A stretch of 46,770 nt of DNA from Bacteroidales bacterium (GCA_045642245.1 JAZUIL010000116.1:1-46770); one strand, 5' to 3'; positions 106-44,662 are shown, numbered from the stretch's first letter. The notes: a model not told the origin generated them from the sequence alone. Program-made: numbers and translations.

Positions 106-696
106 TTACAAAATATTACAGATGAGCGGGCGCAGATTATCTTCTAACGCTTTACTCTCACGAAGGAACTCTGGAGAGAAAAGAAGATTGAACTTTTTAC
201 CCTTCAGCGCTGGATCTGTCAAGAATTTAAGAGCATACTTCACATAGAGGGAACGACAATAACCTACAGGAATCGTACTCTTGATAACCATCACAGCATC
301 AGGATTGACGCTCAAAACAAGATCGATGACATCTTCAATATGATGCGTATCAAAAAAATTCTTGGCAGAATCGTAGTTAGTTGGAGCAGCAATAACTACA
401 AAGTCAGCATCCTTGTAAGCAGATACACCATCAAGGGTGGCAGTGAGAGACCCTCTCCTGTCTCCCTTAAAGGGAGATGATTCATTACCAACGCAAGGAA
501 TAATATTTGGATCTGCCAGATACTTCTCTATATACTCGTCCTGAATTGGGGAAATACGATTGTTAATCTTCCTCACCTTTTCGGGGATAACATCAACTGC
601 TGTAACCGTATGGTGTTGAGCCAACAAAGTTGCAATACTAAGGCCAACATAGCCTGTACCGGCTACAGCAATTTGTAAATCTTCAAAATTTCTCAT
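106..696 (-). pseudogene. ugd: UDP-glucose 6-dehydrogenase, first ~195 codons only (3'-truncated; frame leaves the family consensus after ...ALEDNLRP and stops at 106)
   Basis: Rossmann motif [41 protein letters not shown] and [12 protein letters not shown] are typical of UDPGDH, which is normally >380 aa. No continuation is seen in any frame of bases 1-105. Confidence 0.7.
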
Positions 697-711
697 ATCA
701 CTTAATATCTT

Positions 712-1980
712 TTATTCTCTACGTATATACAACTCTATCGCATCTGGATGGTCTATGCAAAACGTCTTGGAATCTGTTACAACAAGAGCTAAATAACCAC
801 CACCTCCAGCGCCAGGAAACTTTGTAGCCAAAACATCGGTCATTGACAGCCAATAATGGATTTCTGGCTGAAGTGAGGAGTGAGGAGTGAGAAGTGAGGA
901 GTTGCCATCCGGGTCGAATATCATTGGGGTGACCATACTGGGGAACATGGAGATCTGCGCTTCGAACGATGCTTTATATGCTGAAGCAAAAGCGGTAAGG
1001 TCGTGGGCGAGAATGGCATTCCAGCAAGCATCGGCGGCATCGGAAAGAGCTTTGACTTTCTGTGGGGTAATATCTTTGCCTTCTACTACTGAACATCCGG
1101 GTTGACGAGGATCAAGAGGAACTAAAACAAGATGCTGTTCTAGGAAACGAAGAGTCATCTCATCGGTAGTACTCTCAATCTTCTTCGGCCAGAAATTATT
1201 ATCATAATAATGACGACAGAGGCCTGGGACACAGATACCAATAGCATCTTGGGCTCCAGAAATATGCAAGCCTTTACGTTCTGGATTATTCTCAAAACAA
1301 AAGACAAGACGAGCCAAGGTCTCCGGATCCATCTTAGGGAGTTTGACTGGCCAGATCTTCTGAATCATCTTTCGCGTAGAGGTGGCAAGTCCACAACGTT
1401 CACGGATTTCGAAAGTGGGCTCTAAAGAGATGGTGATGGCCCAACCGGGGTGGTATTGGGAGACGTAGGGCTGGTCGATCCAGGTACCGGCGAGATCTAA
1501 CCTTGTTGGAATCAGTGAGGAGTGAGGAGTGAGGAGTGAGGAGTTATTTGCCTGACCCTCCCCTTGCAATAATACAGTTTTAAGGGAGCTGCTGCTACGG
1601 GCTTGAAGGCCTTCATGTGGGGTGCGGTCTAGTTCGATGTACTCAATGCCTCGTGCTTTACAGAGTTGACGTTTTTCTTCGCTACCACCGTCTTTGTTGA
1701 CTACAAAAAAATCCGGCTTTACAATGTCGAGCGTGGGGAGGAAGTCGATAACTCCATGTCCCTCATTGATAAAGGCTTCTTTCACGGCTTTGATGTTCTG
1801 AACCATGAAGAGTCGCTCTTCCTGAGGGAACATGGGACTACGATGTTTATATTCCTGATAGGTAACATCAGAACCAATGCCCACATAAAGATCTCCGAAC
1901 TGGGATGCCCGCTGGAAGAACTCTATATGTCCCGAATGTAACAGATCGTAGCAGCCGCTGACGAAGACTTTCTTGTTCAT
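712..1980 (-). CDS. Bifunctional cytidylyltransferase-fold nucleotidyltransferase / GHMP-type sugar kinase
   Basis: The N-terminus VFVSGCYDLLHSGHIEFF carries the HxGH motif of the CTP_transf_like fold. The C-terminal half has PTRLDLAGTWIDQP (GHMP N-terminal motif), GLATSTRK and the GAGGGGY glycine loop. Two in-frame NSSLLTPHSSL cassettes are present. Confidence 0.75.
   Translation of the reverse strand: MNKKVFVSGCYDLLHSGHIEFFQRASQFGDLYVGIGSDVTYQEYKHRSPMFPQEERLFMVQNIKAVKEAFINEGHGVIDFLPTLDIVKPDFFVVNKDGGSEEKRQLCKARGIEYIELDRTPHEGLQARSSSSLKTVLLQGEGQANNSSLLTPHSSLIPTRLDLAGTWIDQPYVSQYHPGWAITISLEPTFEIRERCGLATSTRKMIQKIWPVKLPKMDPETLARLVFCFENNPERKGLHISGAQDAIGICVPGLCRHYYDNNFWPKKIESTTDEMTLRFLEQHLVLVPLDPRQPGCSVVEGKDITPQKVKALSDAADACWNAILAHDLTAFASAYKASFEAQISMFPSMVTPMIFDPDGNSSLLTPHSSLQPEIHYWLSMTDVLATKFPGAGGGGYLALVVTDSKTFCIDHPDAIELYIRRE
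871..903 (-). repeat. 33-nt heptamer-repeat cassette, copy A (in frame, encodes NSSLLTPHSSL)
   Basis: The + strand reads AA GTGAGGA GTGAGGA GTGAGAA GTGAGGA GTT, with one substitution relative to copy B. Confidence 0.95.
1513..1545 (-). repeat. 33-nt heptamer-repeat cassette, copy B (in frame, encodes NSSLLTPHSSL)
   Basis: The + strand reads CA GTGAGGA GTGAGGA GTGAGGA GTGAGGA GTT, four perfect units. Confidence 0.95.
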
Positions 1981-1981
1981 C

Positions 1982-3115
1982 TTATTTTACAATGCCCTTT
2001 TCAAGGAATTCTGCCAAATTCATCTTTCGAACATCATGTGCAGCATTATCTGCAGCGACCTTTGCCATATCATGTTTAACCATCAATTCAACCAACTGCT
2101 CGAAGGTAGTGGTCATTGGATTCCAGCCGAGTTCTTTCTTTGCTTTCGTCGGATCACCCCAAAGATTTACAACGTCTGTTGGGCGGTAGAAATCAGGGCT
2201 GACTGCGACCAAAGTCTTGCCAACCAATTGAGAATTGTCAATTGAAAATTGAGAATTAACAGACTCACAAATTCCGACCTCGTTGACACCTTCGCCTTCC
2301 CAACGGAGCTCGATGCCGGCATGGTGGAAAGCTAGGGTAGCGAACTCTCGTACAGTATGCTGAACACCAGTGGCAATGACAAAATCTTCTGGTTTATCAT
2401 GCTGAAGGATCAGCCACATACACTCGACGTAGTCCTTGGCATATCCCCAGTCTCGAAGACTATCGAGGTTTCCGAGATAAAGGCAATCCTGCTTTCCTTG
2501 GGCGATACGTGCTGCTGCGAGCGTAATCTTACGGGTAACGAAAGTTTCACCACGACGCTCTGATTCATGGTTAAAGAGGATGCCGGAGCAGCAGAACATA
2601 TCATATGCCTCACGGTATTCCTTGATGATCCAATAGCCATAAAGCTTAGCTACAGCATAAGGTGAATATGGATGAAATGGGGTATTCTCATTCTGTGGCA
2701 CTTCCTCGACTTTGCCATAAAGTTCAGAAGTAGACGCCTGATAGATCTTACACGTTTTCTCCAAATGATTGGTGCGAACGGCTTCAAGAATACGGAGCAC
2801 GCCAACTGCATCCACATCGGCCGTAAATTCTGGCGCATCGAAACTTACTTGAACATGGCTCTGAGCCGCAAGGTTGTAAATCTCAGTTGGCTGTACCTTA
2901 CCCACAAGTTTGACAAGCGACATTGAGTCGCCCATATCGGCATAATGAAGGTGAAAGTTGGCCGCACCTTCAAGATGCGCAATTCGCTCACGATAATCAA
3001 CCGAAGATCTACGAATAATGCCATGTACTTCATAACCCTTTGCAAGAAGAAACTCTGAGAGGTAGCTGCCGTCTTGACCGGTAACGCCGGTGATCAATGC
3101 AATGTTCTTTGTCAT
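1982..3115 (-). CDS. gmd: GDP-mannose 4,6-dehydratase
   Basis: [52 protein letters not shown] and [13 protein letters not shown] are present. The tracked ORF starts at a TTG at 3124; ATG 3115 ([10 protein letters not shown]) is the likelier start. Confidence 0.95.
2225..2257 (-). repeat. 33-nt AT-rich internally repeated cassette in frame in gmd (encodes [11 protein letters not shown])
   Basis: The minus strand reads AATTCTCAATT TTCAATTGAC AATTCTCAATTG: two copies of AATTCTCAATT around the palindrome TCAATTGA. It lies in a loop that I remember as about 11 aa shorter in other Gmd sequences. Confidence 0.7.
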
Positions 3116-3152
3116 ATTTTTCAATTCATAATTAAAAATTCATAATTCATAA

Positions 3153-4388
3153 TCAAAGCAGACTCTGCTGATACCAGTCGAAGAGCTTCTGCACGCCATC
3201 CTCTATCTCCACTTTGTGTGTCCAGCCGAGGGAATGGAGTTTGCTGACGTCGATGAGCTTGCGCATGGTTCCATCTGGTTTGGTGGCGTCGAATTCTACT
3301 GTACCCGTGAATCCGACTGCCTTAACGACGAGTTCGGAAAGCTCACGAATAGTAAGCTCTTTACCAGTACCAACGTTGATATGGCAATTGCGAATCTCTC
3401 CGAGCGAAGGAATGGCGCCACCTCTTCCAGTACTGTGGTTACGATCAACGACTCCATCAGCTTTTACGCCATAATGAACACTAGAGTATTTCTCAATGCC
3501 GATGATATCTGAGAAATTGACATTCAAAAGTACATGGACGCTCGCGTCAGCCATATCCTCAGACCAAAGGAACTCTCGTAAAGGCTTACCTGTGCCCCAA
3601 AGTGTTACCTTATTGTTTTCGATGCCGTAGTATGCAAGAACTCTCTCAATCAATGCTTGATCACTGTTGCCATCAATGACATAGCGAGTAACTAGTGAGG
3701 AATGAGGAGTGAGGAGTGAGGAGTTGCCTGCTGGTTCCTTGATGTTGGCTCCGACAGGACGGATGGACAAGTCCTTGCGGATCATATCCCAGTTTCCATC
3801 GTTGAGGAGTTTTGCCAAATACACTTTACGCATCATGGCTGGCATAACGTGCGAGTTCTCCAAGTGGAAGTTGTCGTTAGGTCCGTAGAGATTTGTCGGC
3901 ATTACGGCTATATAGTTAGTACCATACTGGAGGTTATAGCTCTCACACATCTTCAAGCCCGCAATCTTGGCAATGGCATACTCTTCGTTGGTGTACTCGA
4001 GTTCTGAAGTTAGCAGACAATCCTCCTTCATTGGCTGTGGTGCATTCTTAGGATAAATGCAAGTAGAACCCAAGAAGAGAAGTTTTTCTACACCATGAGC
4101 ATAAGCCTCTGAGATAACGTTGCACTGGATCTTCATATTCATCATCATGAAATCTGCGCGATAGAGACTATTGGCCATGATACCTCCTACAAAAGCAGCG
4201 GCAAGGACAACTGCATCAGGACGTTCTTCATCAAAGAACTTCTTGACTGCATATTGATCAGTAAGGTCAAGCTCTTTATGGGTGCGACCTACAAGATTAT
4301 TATATCCTCTTGCTTTGAGATTATTCCATATAGCCGAACCTACAAGTCCAAGATGTCCGGCAACATAAATTTTACTTTGATAATCCAT
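3153..4388 (-). CDS. fcl: GDP-L-fucose synthase (GDP-4-keto-6-deoxymannose 3,5-epimerase/4-reductase), long variant with loop insertions
   Basis: IYVAGHLGLVGSAI, LAAAFVGGIMAN, LLFLGSTCIYPK, YAIAKIAGLKMCESYN, MPTNLYGPNDNF and KPDGTMRKLIDVSKLHSLGW align with the remembered E. coli Fcl sequence. It carries one NSSLLTPHSSL cassette. Confidence 0.92.
   Translation of the reverse strand: MDYQSKIYVAGHLGLVGSAIWNNLKARGYNNLVGRTHKELDLTDQYAVKKFFDEERPDAVVLAAAFVGGIMANSLYRADFMMMNMKIQCNVISEAYAHGVEKLLFLGSTCIYPKNAPQPMKEDCLLTSELEYTNEEYAIAKIAGLKMCESYNLQYGTNYIAVMPTNLYGPNDNFHLENSHVMPAMMRKVYLAKLLNDGNWDMIRKDLSIRPVGANIKEPAGNSSLLTPHSSLVTRYVIDGNSDQALIERVLAYYGIENNKVTLWGTGKPLREFLWSEDMADASVHVLLNVNFSDIIGIEKYSSVHYGVKADGVVDRNHSTGRGGAIPSLGEIRNCHINVGTGKELTIRELSELVVKAVGFTGTVEFDATKPDGTMRKLIDVSKLHSLGWTHKVEIEDGVQKLFDWYQQSLL
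3693..3725 (-). repeat. 33-nt heptamer-repeat cassette, copy C (in frame in fcl, encodes NSSLLTPHSSL)
   Basis: The + strand reads TA GTGAGGA ATGAGGA GTGAGGA GTGAGGA GTT, with one substitution. Confidence 0.95.
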
Positions 4389-4500: not shown

Positions 4501-4630
4501 ATAAATATTTCTAACATTGACTTTTTTTTTAAAAAAAAAACTACTTTTGAACCATACAATAAGTACTTTTTTTGCTATTTTGCACACTTTCGCAATCAAA
4601 ATAATCCTCTATCGCTACATCTTTGATGAT

Positions 4631-4775
4631 CTTGCCACTTGCCACCCTCCTATCATAAATGCTTGATTTTCGAGGGATAAAAAGGGTGGCAAGTTGGTGG
4701 AGAGTTGCCACAACTTGCCACCAACTTACCACCCTGTCACACAATTCGATATTGCCCTTAGTGGCAAGTGGCAAG
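4631..4775. repeat. Nested inverted-repeat region built from TTGCCAC/GTGGCAA heptamers
   Basis: Perfect 15-bp IR: CTTGCCACTTGCCAC (4631-4645) with GTGGCAAGTGGCAAG (4761-4775). 11-bp IR: 4638-4648 with 4683-4693. 17-bp IR with one mismatch: 4684-4700 with 4718-4734. Confidence 0.9.
4684..4734 (-). terminator. Candidate Rho-independent terminator or attenuator hairpin inside the heptamer-repeat region
   Basis: A 17-bp stem with one mismatch (4684-4700 with 4718-4734) is followed on the minus strand by TTTTT (reverse complement of 4679-4683). Confidence 0.4.
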
Positions 4776-4982
4776 AGAAATGAAATTCAGGTTACGCGGC
4801 TTGCGTCAACGGGACGATATAATAAACCGTACCGTGCTTATTCTCTTTACGCTCGAAATGAAGCGCCTTGAGAAGCATACCCACCTTGATGTCCGTACCA
4901 TGATTCGGCTTTTAGGTCGGGCACTTTGTAAGCAAAGTTTGTCAGAAGTTGAATAGAAAATGTGTTTTTCTAAAAGCAGCCG

Positions 4983-9601: not shown

Positions 9602-11038
9602 TTAAGATTTCCTGATGAACCGCAATGCATCAATCAGAGATCTGAGCTTAAAGATATATGCCAGACTTATATAGGCAATAGCCCCTATGACAAATCCGCC
9701 GAACAATTGGACATAAATACTCGTAACAATACTATTAGCCAAGTAGATTACGATAACCATTATCAACGATACAGCTAGCGTCGGAACAAACTCCTTGATT
9801 TGTTGCCATAGACCGACATTCACTAATTTCTGGGTCGCCAATGTATTAATAACGAAAGCGATAAAGGTAGTAAATACTGTACCAGATACCATCCAGATGA
9901 TTCCCTGTGGTATGGTCACTATCATGGTAAGGACGATAACGGCCTTCTTAAGCAGTTCAAGCTTTAAGAATATATCAGAGCGACCTTTCACTTGAAGGAG
10001 ATTAAGATTGACCGCATTGATCGGTGTCCAAATCTTAGCAACACACAATATCTGCAAAAGCAGCACACAACCAAGCCATTTTTCTCCTAGAAATACAAGA
10101 ACAAAAGGTTTTGCAAGTATGGCAATACCAAACAACAATGGAAACATGATGAAGGCGGTTACCCTGAGCATGCGCAAATAATTCGTCTGAAGCCGGCTGT
10201 CGTCATTCTGTATTGAACTAAGGACAGGGAATGAGACTCTCTGTAAGATACCCGTACCATTCTTGATAGGCAAATCAACGAATTGCTGGGCACGTGTATA
10301 ATCACCCAAATCCTTGGCGGTATAGAACTTACCAATAACCAAAGGGTATATATTATTGAAAACCGTATCAAGGATTCCTACGCCCATTATCTTACTTCCA
10401 TACCCCCAAAGATAGCTGAAGGAAGTTTGTGACCAACCTGTGACAGGACGCCATCTGGACACCAGCCAAAGACTAATTGTCCGGATCAAAGCGGCCGACA
10501 CTTGCTGGAACACTAATGCCCAAACTCCCAATCCGGCATAGGCGAGATAAAGACCTACACCACCACTTACCATTGCTGCTGCAACCGAGACCTTCGCCTG
10601 CGATTTGAAGTCGATCTTCTTAGTCAAGATGGCCTGTTGTACTGCACATAAAGGATTGAACAAGGTAGCAAGTGCAGTGACCTTCAGCAGTTTTGTCAGG
10701 ACTGGCGTATGATAAAAATCCGCGATCCATGGTGAGGCGATGAACAGAAGGAGATAACAAACAGCTCCAACAATAATATTAAAATAAAATGCGGTCGAAA
10801 GATCCTCTTCTTTCAAATCGGGCTTACGTACAAGTGCATTGCTGAAACCGCTGTCGATAAAAACCTGCGCAAGAGCAAGAAAGACAAGCGGCATAGCTAT
10901 GATTCCATAATCCTCTGGGCTAAGGATTCGCGCGATAAGAATGCCAAATACAAACTGAATCCCTTGAGAAGAGAATCTCTCAATGGTACTCCATAAAAAT
11001 CCGTTCTTGGTTTTATTCTTTAAATTATCGCTTGCCAT
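9602..11038 (-). CDS. wzx: Wzx-type polysaccharide flippase (MOP/PST family)
   Basis: 478 aa and multi-pass hydrophobic. The N-terminus WSTIERFSSQGIQFVFGILIARILSPEDYG is typical of polysaccharide biosynthesis (Polysacc_synt) proteins. Confidence 0.85.
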   Translation of the reverse strand: MASDNLKNKTKNGFLWSTIERFSSQGIQFVFGILIARILSPEDYGIIAMPLVFLALAQVFIDSGFSNALVRKPDLKEEDLSTAFYFNIIVGAVCYLLLFIASPWIADFYHTPVLTKLLKVTALATLFNPLCAVQQAILTKKIDFKSQAKVSVAAAMVSGGVGLYLAYAGLGVWALVFQQVSAALIRTISLWLVSRWRPVTGWSQTSFSYLWGYGSKIMGVGILDTVFNNIYPLVIGKFYTAKDLGDYTRAQQFVDLPIKNGTGILQRVSFPVLSSIQNDDSRLQTNYLRMLRVTAFIMFPLLFGIAILAKPFVLVFLGEKWLGCVLLLQILCVAKIWTPINAVNLNLLQVKGRSDIFLKLELLKKAVIVLTMIVTIPQGIIWMVSGTVFTTFIAFVINTLATQKLVNVGLWQQIKEFVPTLAVSLIMVIVIYLANSIVTSIYVQLFGGFVIGAIAYISLAYIFKLRSLIDALRFIRKS

Positions 11039-15217: not shown

Positions 15218-16645
15218 TCAATAGGCCTGCTTATCATGACCAGGGAGAAGTTGCCAGAGAGTCTTAAAGAATATCTCCGTATCGAGAAGGGGCGTCCAAT
15301 GCTCAATATACCAGATATCATATTCTACGCGACGCTTCATATCCTCTACTGTTTTTGTTTCTCCCCTACATCCTGAAACCTGGGCCCAACCAGTGATTCC
15401 AGGTTTAGCCAGATGTCGGACCATATAATCTGCAATAAGAGAACTATACATTTCAGTATGATACTCCATATGCGGACGAGGACCAATGACACTCATGTTT
15501 CCCAAGAAGACATTGATAAACTGAGGCAGTTCATCGATGGATGACCGACGGAGGAAATCGCCAAATGGAGTCTTTCGGGGATCGTCTTGCGTAGCCTGAA
15601 TCCTATCAGCATCGGCATTGACTTTCATCGATCTAAACTTGTAGATATAAAAAGATTCACCATTATAGCCTGTTCGCGCTTGTCGGAAATATAGAGGACC
15701 AACATTTCCCGTTACTTTATTACCTATCCACACAAAAAGCAAAACAAACGGATAGATAGTACACAAGAACAATGCACTAAATACAATGTCAAAAGCTCTT
15801 TTCCCCATTTTAGAGACCAAAGACTGTAAGGGCTCTTCTCTCAATTTGATGTAATTGACATTTCCTTTAGTTCGCACAGTAAGCCTTCGCTTTGGATAAC
15901 CATCAAAGTTTGGCACAAAATAAAACTCGATAAGTTTCTCGTTACAGATACGAATAATTTGGTCAACTTCACTTTTATTAATAGCAGGAGACAAAGAACA
16001 ATAAATCTCATCAGGACAATGACCGTCTTCATCAATCCAACTAAAGAAATCGCTCACACTCCCTAACAAAGTACTTTCTTTAGGTACCAATGCCTTTGGG
16101 AAAGAACTGAAAAAACCAAATACGCGATAGCCTGTAAACACGTAATCATCAACTAACGCATGATACATCTTCAGCTGGGTCTCATCAAGTCCAATCATCA
16201 CTACATTACGTGTATTATGGCCTAGTCCTCGAAGGTATTTTACAAAACGATTAGCAATGAGATGAATTATCATCAAAATAGGCAGACATATAAAAAATGC
16301 TTCTACCAGTAAATGACGTGGAGTTTCCTTATATACCATTGCCACAAGTACAGTATAGACCATGTAGGTGACAAATGTCTGCTTGAATGTGCGCCACGCC
16401 TCCATTCGCAAACGCATATAACGAGTATGCAGCTTTATTGGAATATTGCTAATTGCTACAATAAATGAGACAGCAAGAAGGACATATAACAATGACGGAC
16501 TATAGCCATCATCCATAACGGTGCTGACTTCCACAAACGGGATTGTCCGCATCAAAAAAAGTAACACAAATAAATGTGTTGCTAAATCTCCAAAAAAAAT
16601 AGGAATTTTATAATAAAGAAATTCGCGAGAATCTTGTGTCGTCAT
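15218..16645 (-). CDS. Undecaprenyl-phosphate sugar-phosphate transferase (large WbaP/WcaJ-type initiating PGT)
   Basis: It has N-terminal TM segments and the C-terminal bacterial sugar transferase domain KRAFDIVFSALFL...YKFRSM...DPRKTPFGDFLRRSSIDELPQFINVFLGNMSVIGPRPH. The tracked TTG start (16675) lies inside the -7 box, so ATG 16645 is preferred. Confidence 0.9.
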   Translation of the reverse strand: MTTQDSREFLYYKIPIFFGDLATHLFVLLFLMRTIPFVEVSTVMDDGYSPSLLYVLLAVSFIVAISNIPIKLHTRYMRLRMEAWRTFKQTFVTYMVYTVLVAMVYKETPRHLLVEAFFICLPILMIIHLIANRFVKYLRGLGHNTRNVVMIGLDETQLKMYHALVDDYVFTGYRVFGFFSSFPKALVPKESTLLGSVSDFFSWIDEDGHCPDEIYCSLSPAINKSEVDQIIRICNEKLIEFYFVPNFDGYPKRRLTVRTKGNVNYIKLREEPLQSLVSKMGKRAFDIVFSALFLCTIYPFVLLFVWIGNKVTGNVGPLYFRQARTGYNGESFYIYKFRSMKVNADADRIQATQDDPRKTPFGDFLRRSSIDELPQFINVFLGNMSVIGPRPHMEYHTEMYSSLIADYMVRHLAKPGITGWAQVSGCRGETKTVEDMKRRVEYDIWYIEHWTPLLDTEIFFKTLWQLLPGHDKQAY

Positions 16646-44442: not shown

Positions 44443-44662
44443 AATAAAATTTAAAATTTATAATGTATAATGTATAATTGTTTGTCTACGATTTTCTCTA
44501 CACCCAAAGAATAATTCTTGTCAATAATCTCCGTCAAAAGAAATCAAAGAAAACCTTTTTTTCTATCAGATTTGATTTCTTTTGTTTCTTTGATGGAAGA
44601 AAATATCTAAAGAAGATATATTCTCTCAAGATTCAATAAAAGATCTTTTGGAAAGATAGACT

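Follow-up and report, generated by a model that had tools for sequence, protein, structure and literature searches.

Why should three nearly identical segments of 11 codons sit in frame inside two unrelated sugar-nucleotide genes of one bacterium? The question arises from a 46,770-nucleotide (nt) stretch of DNA from a Bacteroidales bacterium (GCA_045642245.1, JAZUIL010000116.1:1-46770), hereafter called the window, in which all genes are encoded on the minus strand. One host gene (712–1980) specifies a cytidylyltransferase/GHMP-kinase-like fusion protein of 422 amino acids (aa) and carries two of these cassettes, and the other (3153–4388) specifies a 411-aa GDP-L-fucose synthase (Fcl) and carries one. 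The cassettes prove to be three members of a set of dispersed short heptanucleotide arrays of approximately four to five units, or 27–40 nt. With moderate confidence, we propose that such arrays are copied or regenerated between one another and are filtered by selection, and that the peptide they encode is a tolerated spacer.

On the plus strand, the pattern N-A-(GTGAGGA)4-GTT is found at positions 871–903, 1513–1545 and 3693–3725. These are the coordinates given in a previous description of the locus (the original prediction), and a pattern search returns those sites alone. Because the first base varies (A, C and T), the shared core is 32 nt in length, A(GTGAGGA)4GTT, and spans 872–903, 1514–1545 and 3694–3725. 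The copy at 1514–1545 is perfect and each of the others carries a single G-to-A substitution, in agreement with the claim of at most one internal change per copy (0 or 1). A 28-mer search permitting up to three mismatches locates precisely three sites in the window and none in 100 dinucleotide-preserving shuffles. Tandem Repeats Finder (TRF) reports a period of 7, 4.4 copies and 91–100% matches at all three sites, and every cassette comprises at least three head-to-tail 7-nt units.

Read on the minus strand, all three copies have the codons AAC TCC TCA CTN CTC ACT CCT CAY TCC TCA CTN, which specify NSSLLTPHSSL; the common orientation, common frame and 11-codon length that had been predicted are therefore present. 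The cassette called site 1 (1514–1545, minus strand; AACTCC(TCACTCC)3TCACT on the coding strand) encodes residues 146–156 of the 422-aa protein, and site 2 (872–903, minus strand; substitution in a CTT codon) encodes residues 360–370 of the same protein. The Fcl cassette (3694–3725, minus strand; substitution in a CAT codon) corresponds to Fcl residues 220–230. A larger element that includes similar 5′ flanks (GGC AAC, GCA) was considered and rejected, because cassette-free relatives have these flanking codons too, as a native part of each host gene, and the codons therefore lie outside any such element.

All three cassettes occupy structurally permissive segments of their hosts: the linker between two domains, loops, and the tip of a hairpin that is specific to the lineage. 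Site 1 is C-terminal to the cytidylyltransferase domain (Pfam match to residues 7–97; Protein Data Bank (PDB) matches to about residue 139) and precedes the GHMP-like half, and these match limits support its original placement in a linker. Site 2 is likewise where it had been described, 19 residues N-terminal to the sequence PGAGGGG. The Fcl cassette resides within a stretch (residues 210–249) that is unmatched in the Escherichia coli structure 1bsv and in 7anh on PDB sequence alignment, as expected for an extra loop with no E. coli counterpart. Homologues of this Fcl assign the window to a Paludibacteraceae-like member of the Bacteroidales, and a cyanobacterial origin, first suggested by units that resemble the cyanobacterial short tandemly repeated repetitive sequences, was rejected on these grounds. 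AlphaFold models assign site 1 a low predicted local distance difference test (pLDDT) score and no secondary structure, and show a pLDDT dip at site 2 between helices 328–345 and 371–378. In Fcl, residues 222–229 score below 50 and form the tip of a β-hairpin between strands 212–218 and 232–238. Because the overall quality of these models is poor, only such local features and the PDB sequence alignment were used; the local features agree with the expected surface-loop location.

The window contains further arrays of the same period. TRF identifies six period-7 arrays of at least four units, three of which went unmentioned in the original prediction. One lies in frame within the gene for GDP-mannose 4,6-dehydratase (gmd; 1982–3115, minus strand, with the ATG at 3115 taken as the start) and consists of 5.3 (AATTCTC)-type units (2225–2261, minus strand by TRF); this array is absent from the gmd gene of a related contig, L001. 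The other two are non-coding. An array of (AATTATG)-type units on the sense strand (3123–3153, minus strand) fills the fcl–gmd spacer, extending from the fcl stop codon (3153–3155) to 8 nt ahead of the gmd ATG. Another, with ATTATAC and ATTTTAA units on the sense strand (44448–44479, minus strand), lies upstream of ilvC and stops 5 nt short of its start codon (44442).

Period 7 also dominates in related DNA. The sample consisted of the window and nine related Bacteroidales contigs (169 kb in all), with the related DNA drawn from polysaccharide loci and their neighbours at no more than 20 kb per contig. Period 7 accounts for 40 of the 47 arrays with at least three copies in this sample, and most of these arrays have 4–5.6 units. 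Members of the family appear mostly to be non-coding and to adjoin start or stop codons, and some, the three cassettes among them, are intragenic. The non-coding arrays have a sense strand rich in A and poor in G, and of 25 such arrays counted by hand from TRF output and gene calls, 13 terminate no more than 20 nt upstream of a start codon.

The unit itself is widely scattered. A scan for (GTGAGGA)3 with one genome per Genome Taxonomy Database (GTDB) species revealed at least 120 loci, and the matches listed include Planctomycetota, Campylobacterota, cyanobacteria, Xanthomonadales, rumen Clostridia and several Bacteroidales. Within 826 kb surrounding these seed loci there are 308 period-7 arrays, compared with 27–33 for each of periods 6, 8 and 9; the period-7 excess is thus seen in the window, the 169-kb sample and this larger set. 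The arrays listed vary continuously in length from 21 to 124 nt, with peaks at 27 and 31 nt, which correspond to about four units. Deep within long open frames are 24 of the 122 listed arrays, with CTCCTCA as the sense strand every time, and another 33 of the 122 are just upstream of long open reading frames (ORFs). In-frame hosts in other phyla include UvrB, RfbB (dTDP-glucose dehydratase), a Nostoc UvrD-like helicase and a histidine kinase, and a Prevotellaceae TolC-like protein also bears the CTCCTCA unit in frame.

The constant orientation has a simple basis. The sequence (CTCCTCA)n is free of stop codons in all three frames, whereas (GTGAGGA)n presents TGA in each frame within 21 nt, and thus intragenic arrays survive with CTCCTCA in the sense strand because their complement meets stops in every frame. 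Units of other contigs that contain TAA (ATAACTC and AATTCAT) have one altered unit (TCA GAA) in the coding copy, and judging from such sequences, selection would edit coding arrays no further than is needed to avoid stop codons. It filters intragenic arrays, sparing only those in permissive segments, in the stop-free orientation and with a total length that keeps the frame.

Viral DNA contains the GTGAGGA unit as well, at 29 loci, and in many of these the unit forms inverted pairs within AT-rich sequence. Specifically, inverted (GTGAGGA)3–5 pairs occur in L149, L151, L153, L155, L156 and L157, which are viral and in part giant-virus-like, and in L040, a metagenome-assembled genome (MAG) of a rumen Clostridiales. 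The members of these pairs are 130–180 base pairs (bp) apart with AT-rich spacers, such that the arrays are the stems of long hairpins. Examination of the viral loci for a tie to the Bacteroidales cassettes produced none.

Orthologous sites offer a view of how the arrays change. Fcl orthologues of about 90% identity range from 399 to 433 aa, and this variation in length is confined to the position of the cassette. There, KENGET is the sequence of the basal allele, other alleles carry unrelated low-complexity inserts, and alleles of 400–402 aa provide the cassette-free forms that had been sought. In L162 (including 10662–10735), arrays of 9 nt replace the 7-nt arrays, the Fcl loop included, and the preferred repeat period thus seems to differ between genomes.

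The linker at site 1 is similarly variable in content and constant in period. Among 120 orthologues (about 75–78% identity), 95 have at least two lag-7 self-matches in this linker, and lag-7 self-matches total 371 compared with 83–190 at other lags. The DNA units at site 1 differ between contigs: ACTCCTC in the window and L125, ACAACTC in L127, ATAACTC in L129, AGAATTC in L126, CTCAACC in L128 and GGCCAAY in L132. In L001, an array-poor contig, inspection revealed no evident 7-nt repeat at site 1. Even clusters of at least 90% identity carry SPFKGDGRGS, LNSKPSTLNS, LNSEFRNHKS, TTHDSQLTTQ or ANSQQPTANG at site 1, and because the site can be wholly different within such clusters, its content is replaced faster than the gene diverges.

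In contrast, where the window's own cassette recurs it is unusually well preserved. L125 (at site 1) and L124 (at site 2), whose proteins are 78% identical, hold the cassette at 32 of 33 nt identity, compared with 74% elsewhere in the gene, and L124 shares the CTT variants. Comparison of each cassette with 30 flanking codons per side yields Fisher P values of 0.013 (site 1) and 4e-4 (site 2). Decayed copies (NSSLHTPHSS, HSSLLTPHSKS and SSLQIPHSKS) are found in other relatives. An ancient, conserved loop had been named as the outcome that would overturn a recent origin; the repeat sites are indeed ancient, but their DNA has not diverged normally, being either replaced outright or abnormally conserved. 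As these alignments show, an old site can hold a young sequence, with fast turnover and a unit that follows the contig.

The recurrence of NSSLLTPHSSL, three times in the window and again in two orthologues, might be taken to indicate a conserved functional loop, or the repeats might be artefacts of assembly. Both notions are scarcely credible. Close orthologues have unrelated peptides at the same sites, and the differences that separate the L124 and L125 cassettes are both nonsynonymous with zero synonymous. Assembly error had also been raised in the original prediction, and the cassette is present at equivalent sites in the independent assemblies L124 (Logan) and L125 (ENA), with the unit at no fewer than the 120 GTDB loci noted above. 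We infer that NSSLLTPHSSL is a tolerated spacer that would carry no functional motif.

A second small element is found at some of these positions. In the window, a palindromic mini-element composed of TCTCCCTTTAAGGGAGA plus CAGGAGAGGGTCTC (443–480, minus strand) is in frame within the N-terminal fragment of a UDP-glucose dehydrogenase gene. Related copies (about 40 nt, TCTCCCTTTAAGGGAGA plus GGAGAGGGTC) are located at L001:1818-1860, L125:1613-1650, L132:2527-2560, L132:2984-3010 and L126:5573-5589. When in frame, the element is read as SPFKGD(R/G/L)..., and its hosts are the UDP-glucose dehydrogenase fragment, the 422-aa protein and the N terminus of a Gmd-like protein; other copies are intergenic. 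It takes heptamer-array hot spots, namely site 2 of L125, and related peptides are found at site 1 of the proteins P0145 and P0239. At site 1 of L124 (2830–2870), a G/C-rich self-complementary insert, CCCCTCCCTTGCGGAGGGGCTGGGGGAGGG (peptide PLPCGGAGGG), stands in place of the heptamer array.

These data bear on whether the 32–33-nt cassette is a discrete miniature mobile element that survives only where it is tolerated in frame. The logic is that of the Rickettsia palindromic elements (RPEs), which are palindromic repeats of 100–150 bp situated in frame in unrelated genes, within surface segments that tolerate them. The cassettes do share with RPEs an in-frame position in unrelated genes at tolerated surface segments. 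The three copies also have identical ends, length and codon phase, Fcl alleles of 400–402 aa lack the insert, and the mini-element alternates with arrays at the same junctions. Furthermore, the exact 31-mer ACT(CCTCACT)4 occurs in at least seven unrelated genomes, and the start phase is biased, with 42 of 118 listed arrays beginning ACTCCTC and 30 of those 42 preceded by A.

However, all start phases occur and lengths are continuous among the matches listed, and the cassette, at 32 nt, is a tandem repeat that is neither palindromic nor able to form a hairpin as RPEs do. The flanks of the three copies share neither the terminal inverted repeats nor the target-site duplication that would be expected of a miniature inverted-repeat transposable element or an insertion sequence, and neither a transposase nor another candidate enzyme is linked. 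In most orthologues, the linker is already occupied by a period-7 array with a different unit, and the cassette is therefore not a discrete element that entered naive sites. We therefore regard a mobile element as unlikely. What endures from the original proposal of a selfish insertion is its filter, selection for frame, together with a signature of copy and paste; the discrete transposing unit does not.

Arrays also resemble their neighbours on the same contig. The site-1 unit is closer to other arrays on the same contig (mean distance of 1.68, irrespective of rotation and strand) than to arrays on different contigs (2.73), and only 4 of 720 label permutations match the within-contig value. 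Around the GTDB seed loci, 65 of the 198 non-seed period-7 arrays listed (33%) are within one mismatch of GTGAGGA, compared with about 2% expected, and at least five MAGs bear the unit on two contigs. Thus, the permutations, the neighbouring arrays and the two-contig MAGs all indicate that each genome favours one unit, a local dialect. Dialects extend into coding sequence: L126 uses one in frame at site 1 (HNSEFKTQNSS) and in UDP-glucose dehydrogenase (ANSEFINHNSEF), and L132 uses one in frame at site 1 (TANGQQPTANGG) and in ManC (PTANGQEATVNS). Because arrays outpace gene divergence and adopt the unit of the current genome, ongoing copying or regeneration explains them better than passive slippage.

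Arrays in different genes of one contig also share the codon phase AAY-TCN, an agreement with a chance of about 1/81 over three contigs. Selection against stop codons cannot account for the choice of phase, since successive heptamer units pass through all three reading frames. That leaves two origins: copying of in-frame segments from one gene to another, or nucleation of arrays at Asn-Ser codons that lie in frame within loops.

The same dialects could have another origin, in which the arrays act in cis, at the level of mRNA or DNA, as sites recognized by a factor specific for a motif with 7-nt periodicity, and the units co-evolve with that factor. Start-adjacent copies would then tune translation, and coding copies would be extra sites where the protein tolerates them. 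Much of the evidence is compatible with this model: the cassette is conserved at the nucleotide level without synonymous change, units are contig-specific, the preferred size is near four units (as also reported in PMC4692102), roughly half of the non-coding arrays counted closely precede a start codon, the sense strand is G-poor, and the RNA is unstructured. Regulators have been proposed for two comparable repeats, TAACTGA (PMC4679880) and the heptamers of Nostoc (bioRxiv 2022.06.06.494920). In addition, the gmd array of the window is orthologous to a (AACTCTC)4.7 array in L003 (6462–6494), and the two differ by C/T (AATT versus AACT) at one unit position in all five units and share a unit-2 variant, a parallel change that this model would also explain.

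Nevertheless, we consider a binding site improbable, if less so than a mobile element. No heptad-reading factor is known, close relatives swap unrelated units or the mini-element without apparent cost, arrays decay in some lineages, the coding copies are located exactly where anything is tolerated, and there is no match to an Rfam family. The original suggestion was of an mRNA motif that resembles the CCUCC core of the anti-Shine–Dalgarno sequence and might bind a regulator or a small RNA; CUCCUCA has the same sense as the anti-Shine–Dalgarno sequence and therefore is not complementary to it. A structured RNA was also considered and rejected: an Rfam search of all cassettes gave no match at E ≤ 1, and in minimum free energy folds (−1.3 to −2.7 kcal/mol, not better than shuffles) the array is fully unpaired.

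A further possibility is that the arrays are contingency loci, wherein slipped-strand gain or loss of 7 nt frameshifts fcl or the gene for the 422-aa protein and so switches GDP-fucose and NDP-sugar supply, and hence surface glycans. A unit of seven does not divide into whole codons, the host genes supply surface polysaccharide synthesis, and heptanucleotide simple sequence repeats (SSRs), some of them intragenic and with the same frameshift potential, do confer phase variation in Haemophilus influenzae, at the hmw promoters and a HI1369 homologue (PMC2651432). However, tracts there have 8–38 units and strain-variable lengths (PMC2651432), whereas the cassettes have only 4.4 units, short of that range, and their length appears stable. 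The length of site 1 is nearly constant among the 120 orthologues, no array-truncated alleles are seen in eight protein clusters (short members break elsewhere), and like arrays occur in housekeeping contexts such as UvrB, ManC and upstream of ilvC. Phase variation is therefore very unlikely; the original description of the repeat as a heptanucleotide microsatellite is apt, but its ON/OFF switch is unsupported.

We thus return to the copying and filtering of dispersed arrays as the best explanation. This lineage, like some cyanobacteria, Beggiatoaceae and xanthomonads, would continually generate and refresh heptamer arrays. An existing array may be overwritten or regenerated through non-reciprocal copying from another, with ectopic conversion, or template switching primed by a shared A-A-Y-T-C core, as candidate routes, and it would subsequently decay through point mutation.

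Several observations weigh against this account. The copying that we infer would involve tracts of 30 nt, a short length for conversion of the RecA type. A modal length near four units and conservation at the nucleotide level would also fit binding-site selection, and the difference between the gmd arrays of the window and L003 looks, on their alignment, like parallel change rather than whole-unit homogenisation. The shared AAY-TCN phase is not predicted by the filter alone. Genome-wide extent is only indirectly supported because sampling was limited to polysaccharide loci, and the AlphaFold models that bear on tolerance have low mean pLDDT values overall (63 and 55).

A stronger version of the proposal is that heptamer-rich bacteria have an active, genome-specific process by which 7-nt arrays, each of about four units, are written or made uniform, and that this process reaches into essential coding sequence. 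This is a speculative idea that we hold to be possible and no better than doubtful. Machinery for templated copying might underlie such a process, as might a heptad-reading nucleic-acid-binding factor with drifting specificity that drags the arrays along with it.

How do these arrays relate to repeats already described? Heptanucleotide repeats have reportedly been known in bacteria since 1990, when Mazel is said to have described genome-specific heptamer families, the short tandemly repeated repetitive (STRR) sequences of cyanobacteria. Elhai is said to have reported in 2008 on ‘very small mobile repeated elements’, or small dispersed repeats (SDRs), which are hairpin elements of 21–27 nt within heptamer arrays. 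The palindromic mini-element that shares heptamer hot spots here may be a parallel to SDRs. The present arrays differ in that they belong to another phylum and in that their in-frame occupancy of coding sequence is salient.

In prokaryotes more broadly, heptanucleotide units are over-represented among long SSRs (LSSRs) in comparison with units of other lengths (Mrazek et al. 2007, as relayed in PMC4679880 and PMC4692102). As far as these accounts convey, such repeats resemble the present arrays in their tandem 7-nt units, in the many dispersed arrays per genome and in their phylogenetically scattered lineages. The surveys so relayed differ in stressing non-coding arrays and in noting that the units of coding repeats are usually multiples of three, whereas here the arrays are in frame at orthologous hot spots of conserved enzymes.

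Two further repeat families are close relatives in behaviour. Direct repeats of TAACTGA are present in Beggiatoaceae, cyanobacteria and five Bacteroidetes, including Paludibacter propionicigenes (MacGregor 2015, PMC4679880). Each genome favours one heptamer in sets of 2–6 copies, most sets are a few nucleotides upstream of start codons, and orientation within ORFs is limited by stops (PMC4679880). The unit can also be written as AACTGAT and is for that reason placed in the AAYT-type family, although the units here are ACTCCTC, AATTCTC and AATTATG. Copies within genes are nearly absent from that account, which does not compare orthologous sites (PMC4679880).

The GGGNATC repeats of Xanthomonas and Nostoc (Rehm et al. 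2015, PMC4692102) are likewise heptamers spread through the genome with a preference for four units. They are found preferentially within 50 bp of the end of an ORF, their G-rich strand is the non-coding one, and their four-unit size is explained by G-quadruplex formation (PMC4692102). In contrast, the units examined here contain only GG runs or are A/T-rich and cannot form stable quadruplexes, yet the size of their arrays equals that of the GGGNATC arrays. The start-adjacent positional habit is likewise seen in TAACTGA (PMC4679880), GGGNATC (PMC4692102) and the Nostoc heptamers (bioRxiv 2022.06.06.494920).

The arrays are thus of an already known kind, which encompasses prokaryotic heptanucleotide SSRs, STRR sequences, TAACTGA (noted in Paludibacter) and GGGNATC. 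In the literature searched, we found no account of in-frame heptamer occupancy at orthologous hot spots of conserved enzymes, of wholesale unit replacement between near-identical orthologues, or of hot spots shared by heptamer arrays and a palindromic mini-element. The over-representation of heptanucleotide repeats in bacteria was recognized in 2007. In-frame copies in conserved enzymes have a fixed address and a flanking molecular clock, unlike non-coding arrays. Under the stronger, speculative version, orthologous in-frame sites would constitute a natural clock for the array-writing process and a handle on the origin of STRR and LSSR arrays. If our reading is true, the copying or regenerating process becomes measurable in metagenomes. 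For annotators, low-complexity loops with a periodicity of seven residues in Bacteroidales proteins would then be artefacts of the DNA level rather than protein motifs.

Several additional features of these loci were recorded. The proteins P0255, P0257 and P0266 (P0208 cluster) are 81–89-aa fragments of the 422-aa protein that are encoded on long contigs and break at RHYYDNN; they represent pseudogene alleles with frameshifts that have nothing to do with the arrays. Arrays as recombination or mosaic junctions were considered and rejected, in that sliding identity reveals a short island for each shared cassette and no domain-scale mosaic. The window also changes in composition, with a G+C content of 31–39% at 16000–42000 compared with 44–46% at both ends. 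No period-7 arrays of at least three units were found in this region, and the G+C drop is typical of the exchangeable core of a polysaccharide locus between conserved flanks.

Finally, two structures flank the host genes. The ORF at 106–696, which contains the mini-element described above, encodes 196 aa with only the N-terminal NAD-binding domain of a UDP-glucose/GDP-mannose dehydrogenase, and is a truncated gene or a remnant at the edge of the locus. Upstream of fcl (4620–4780), direct and inverted copies of CTTGCCAC and GTGGCAAG form a long hairpin with weak, chance-level Rfam matches to microRNA precursor models, and this hairpin may serve as an operator or a leader structure.

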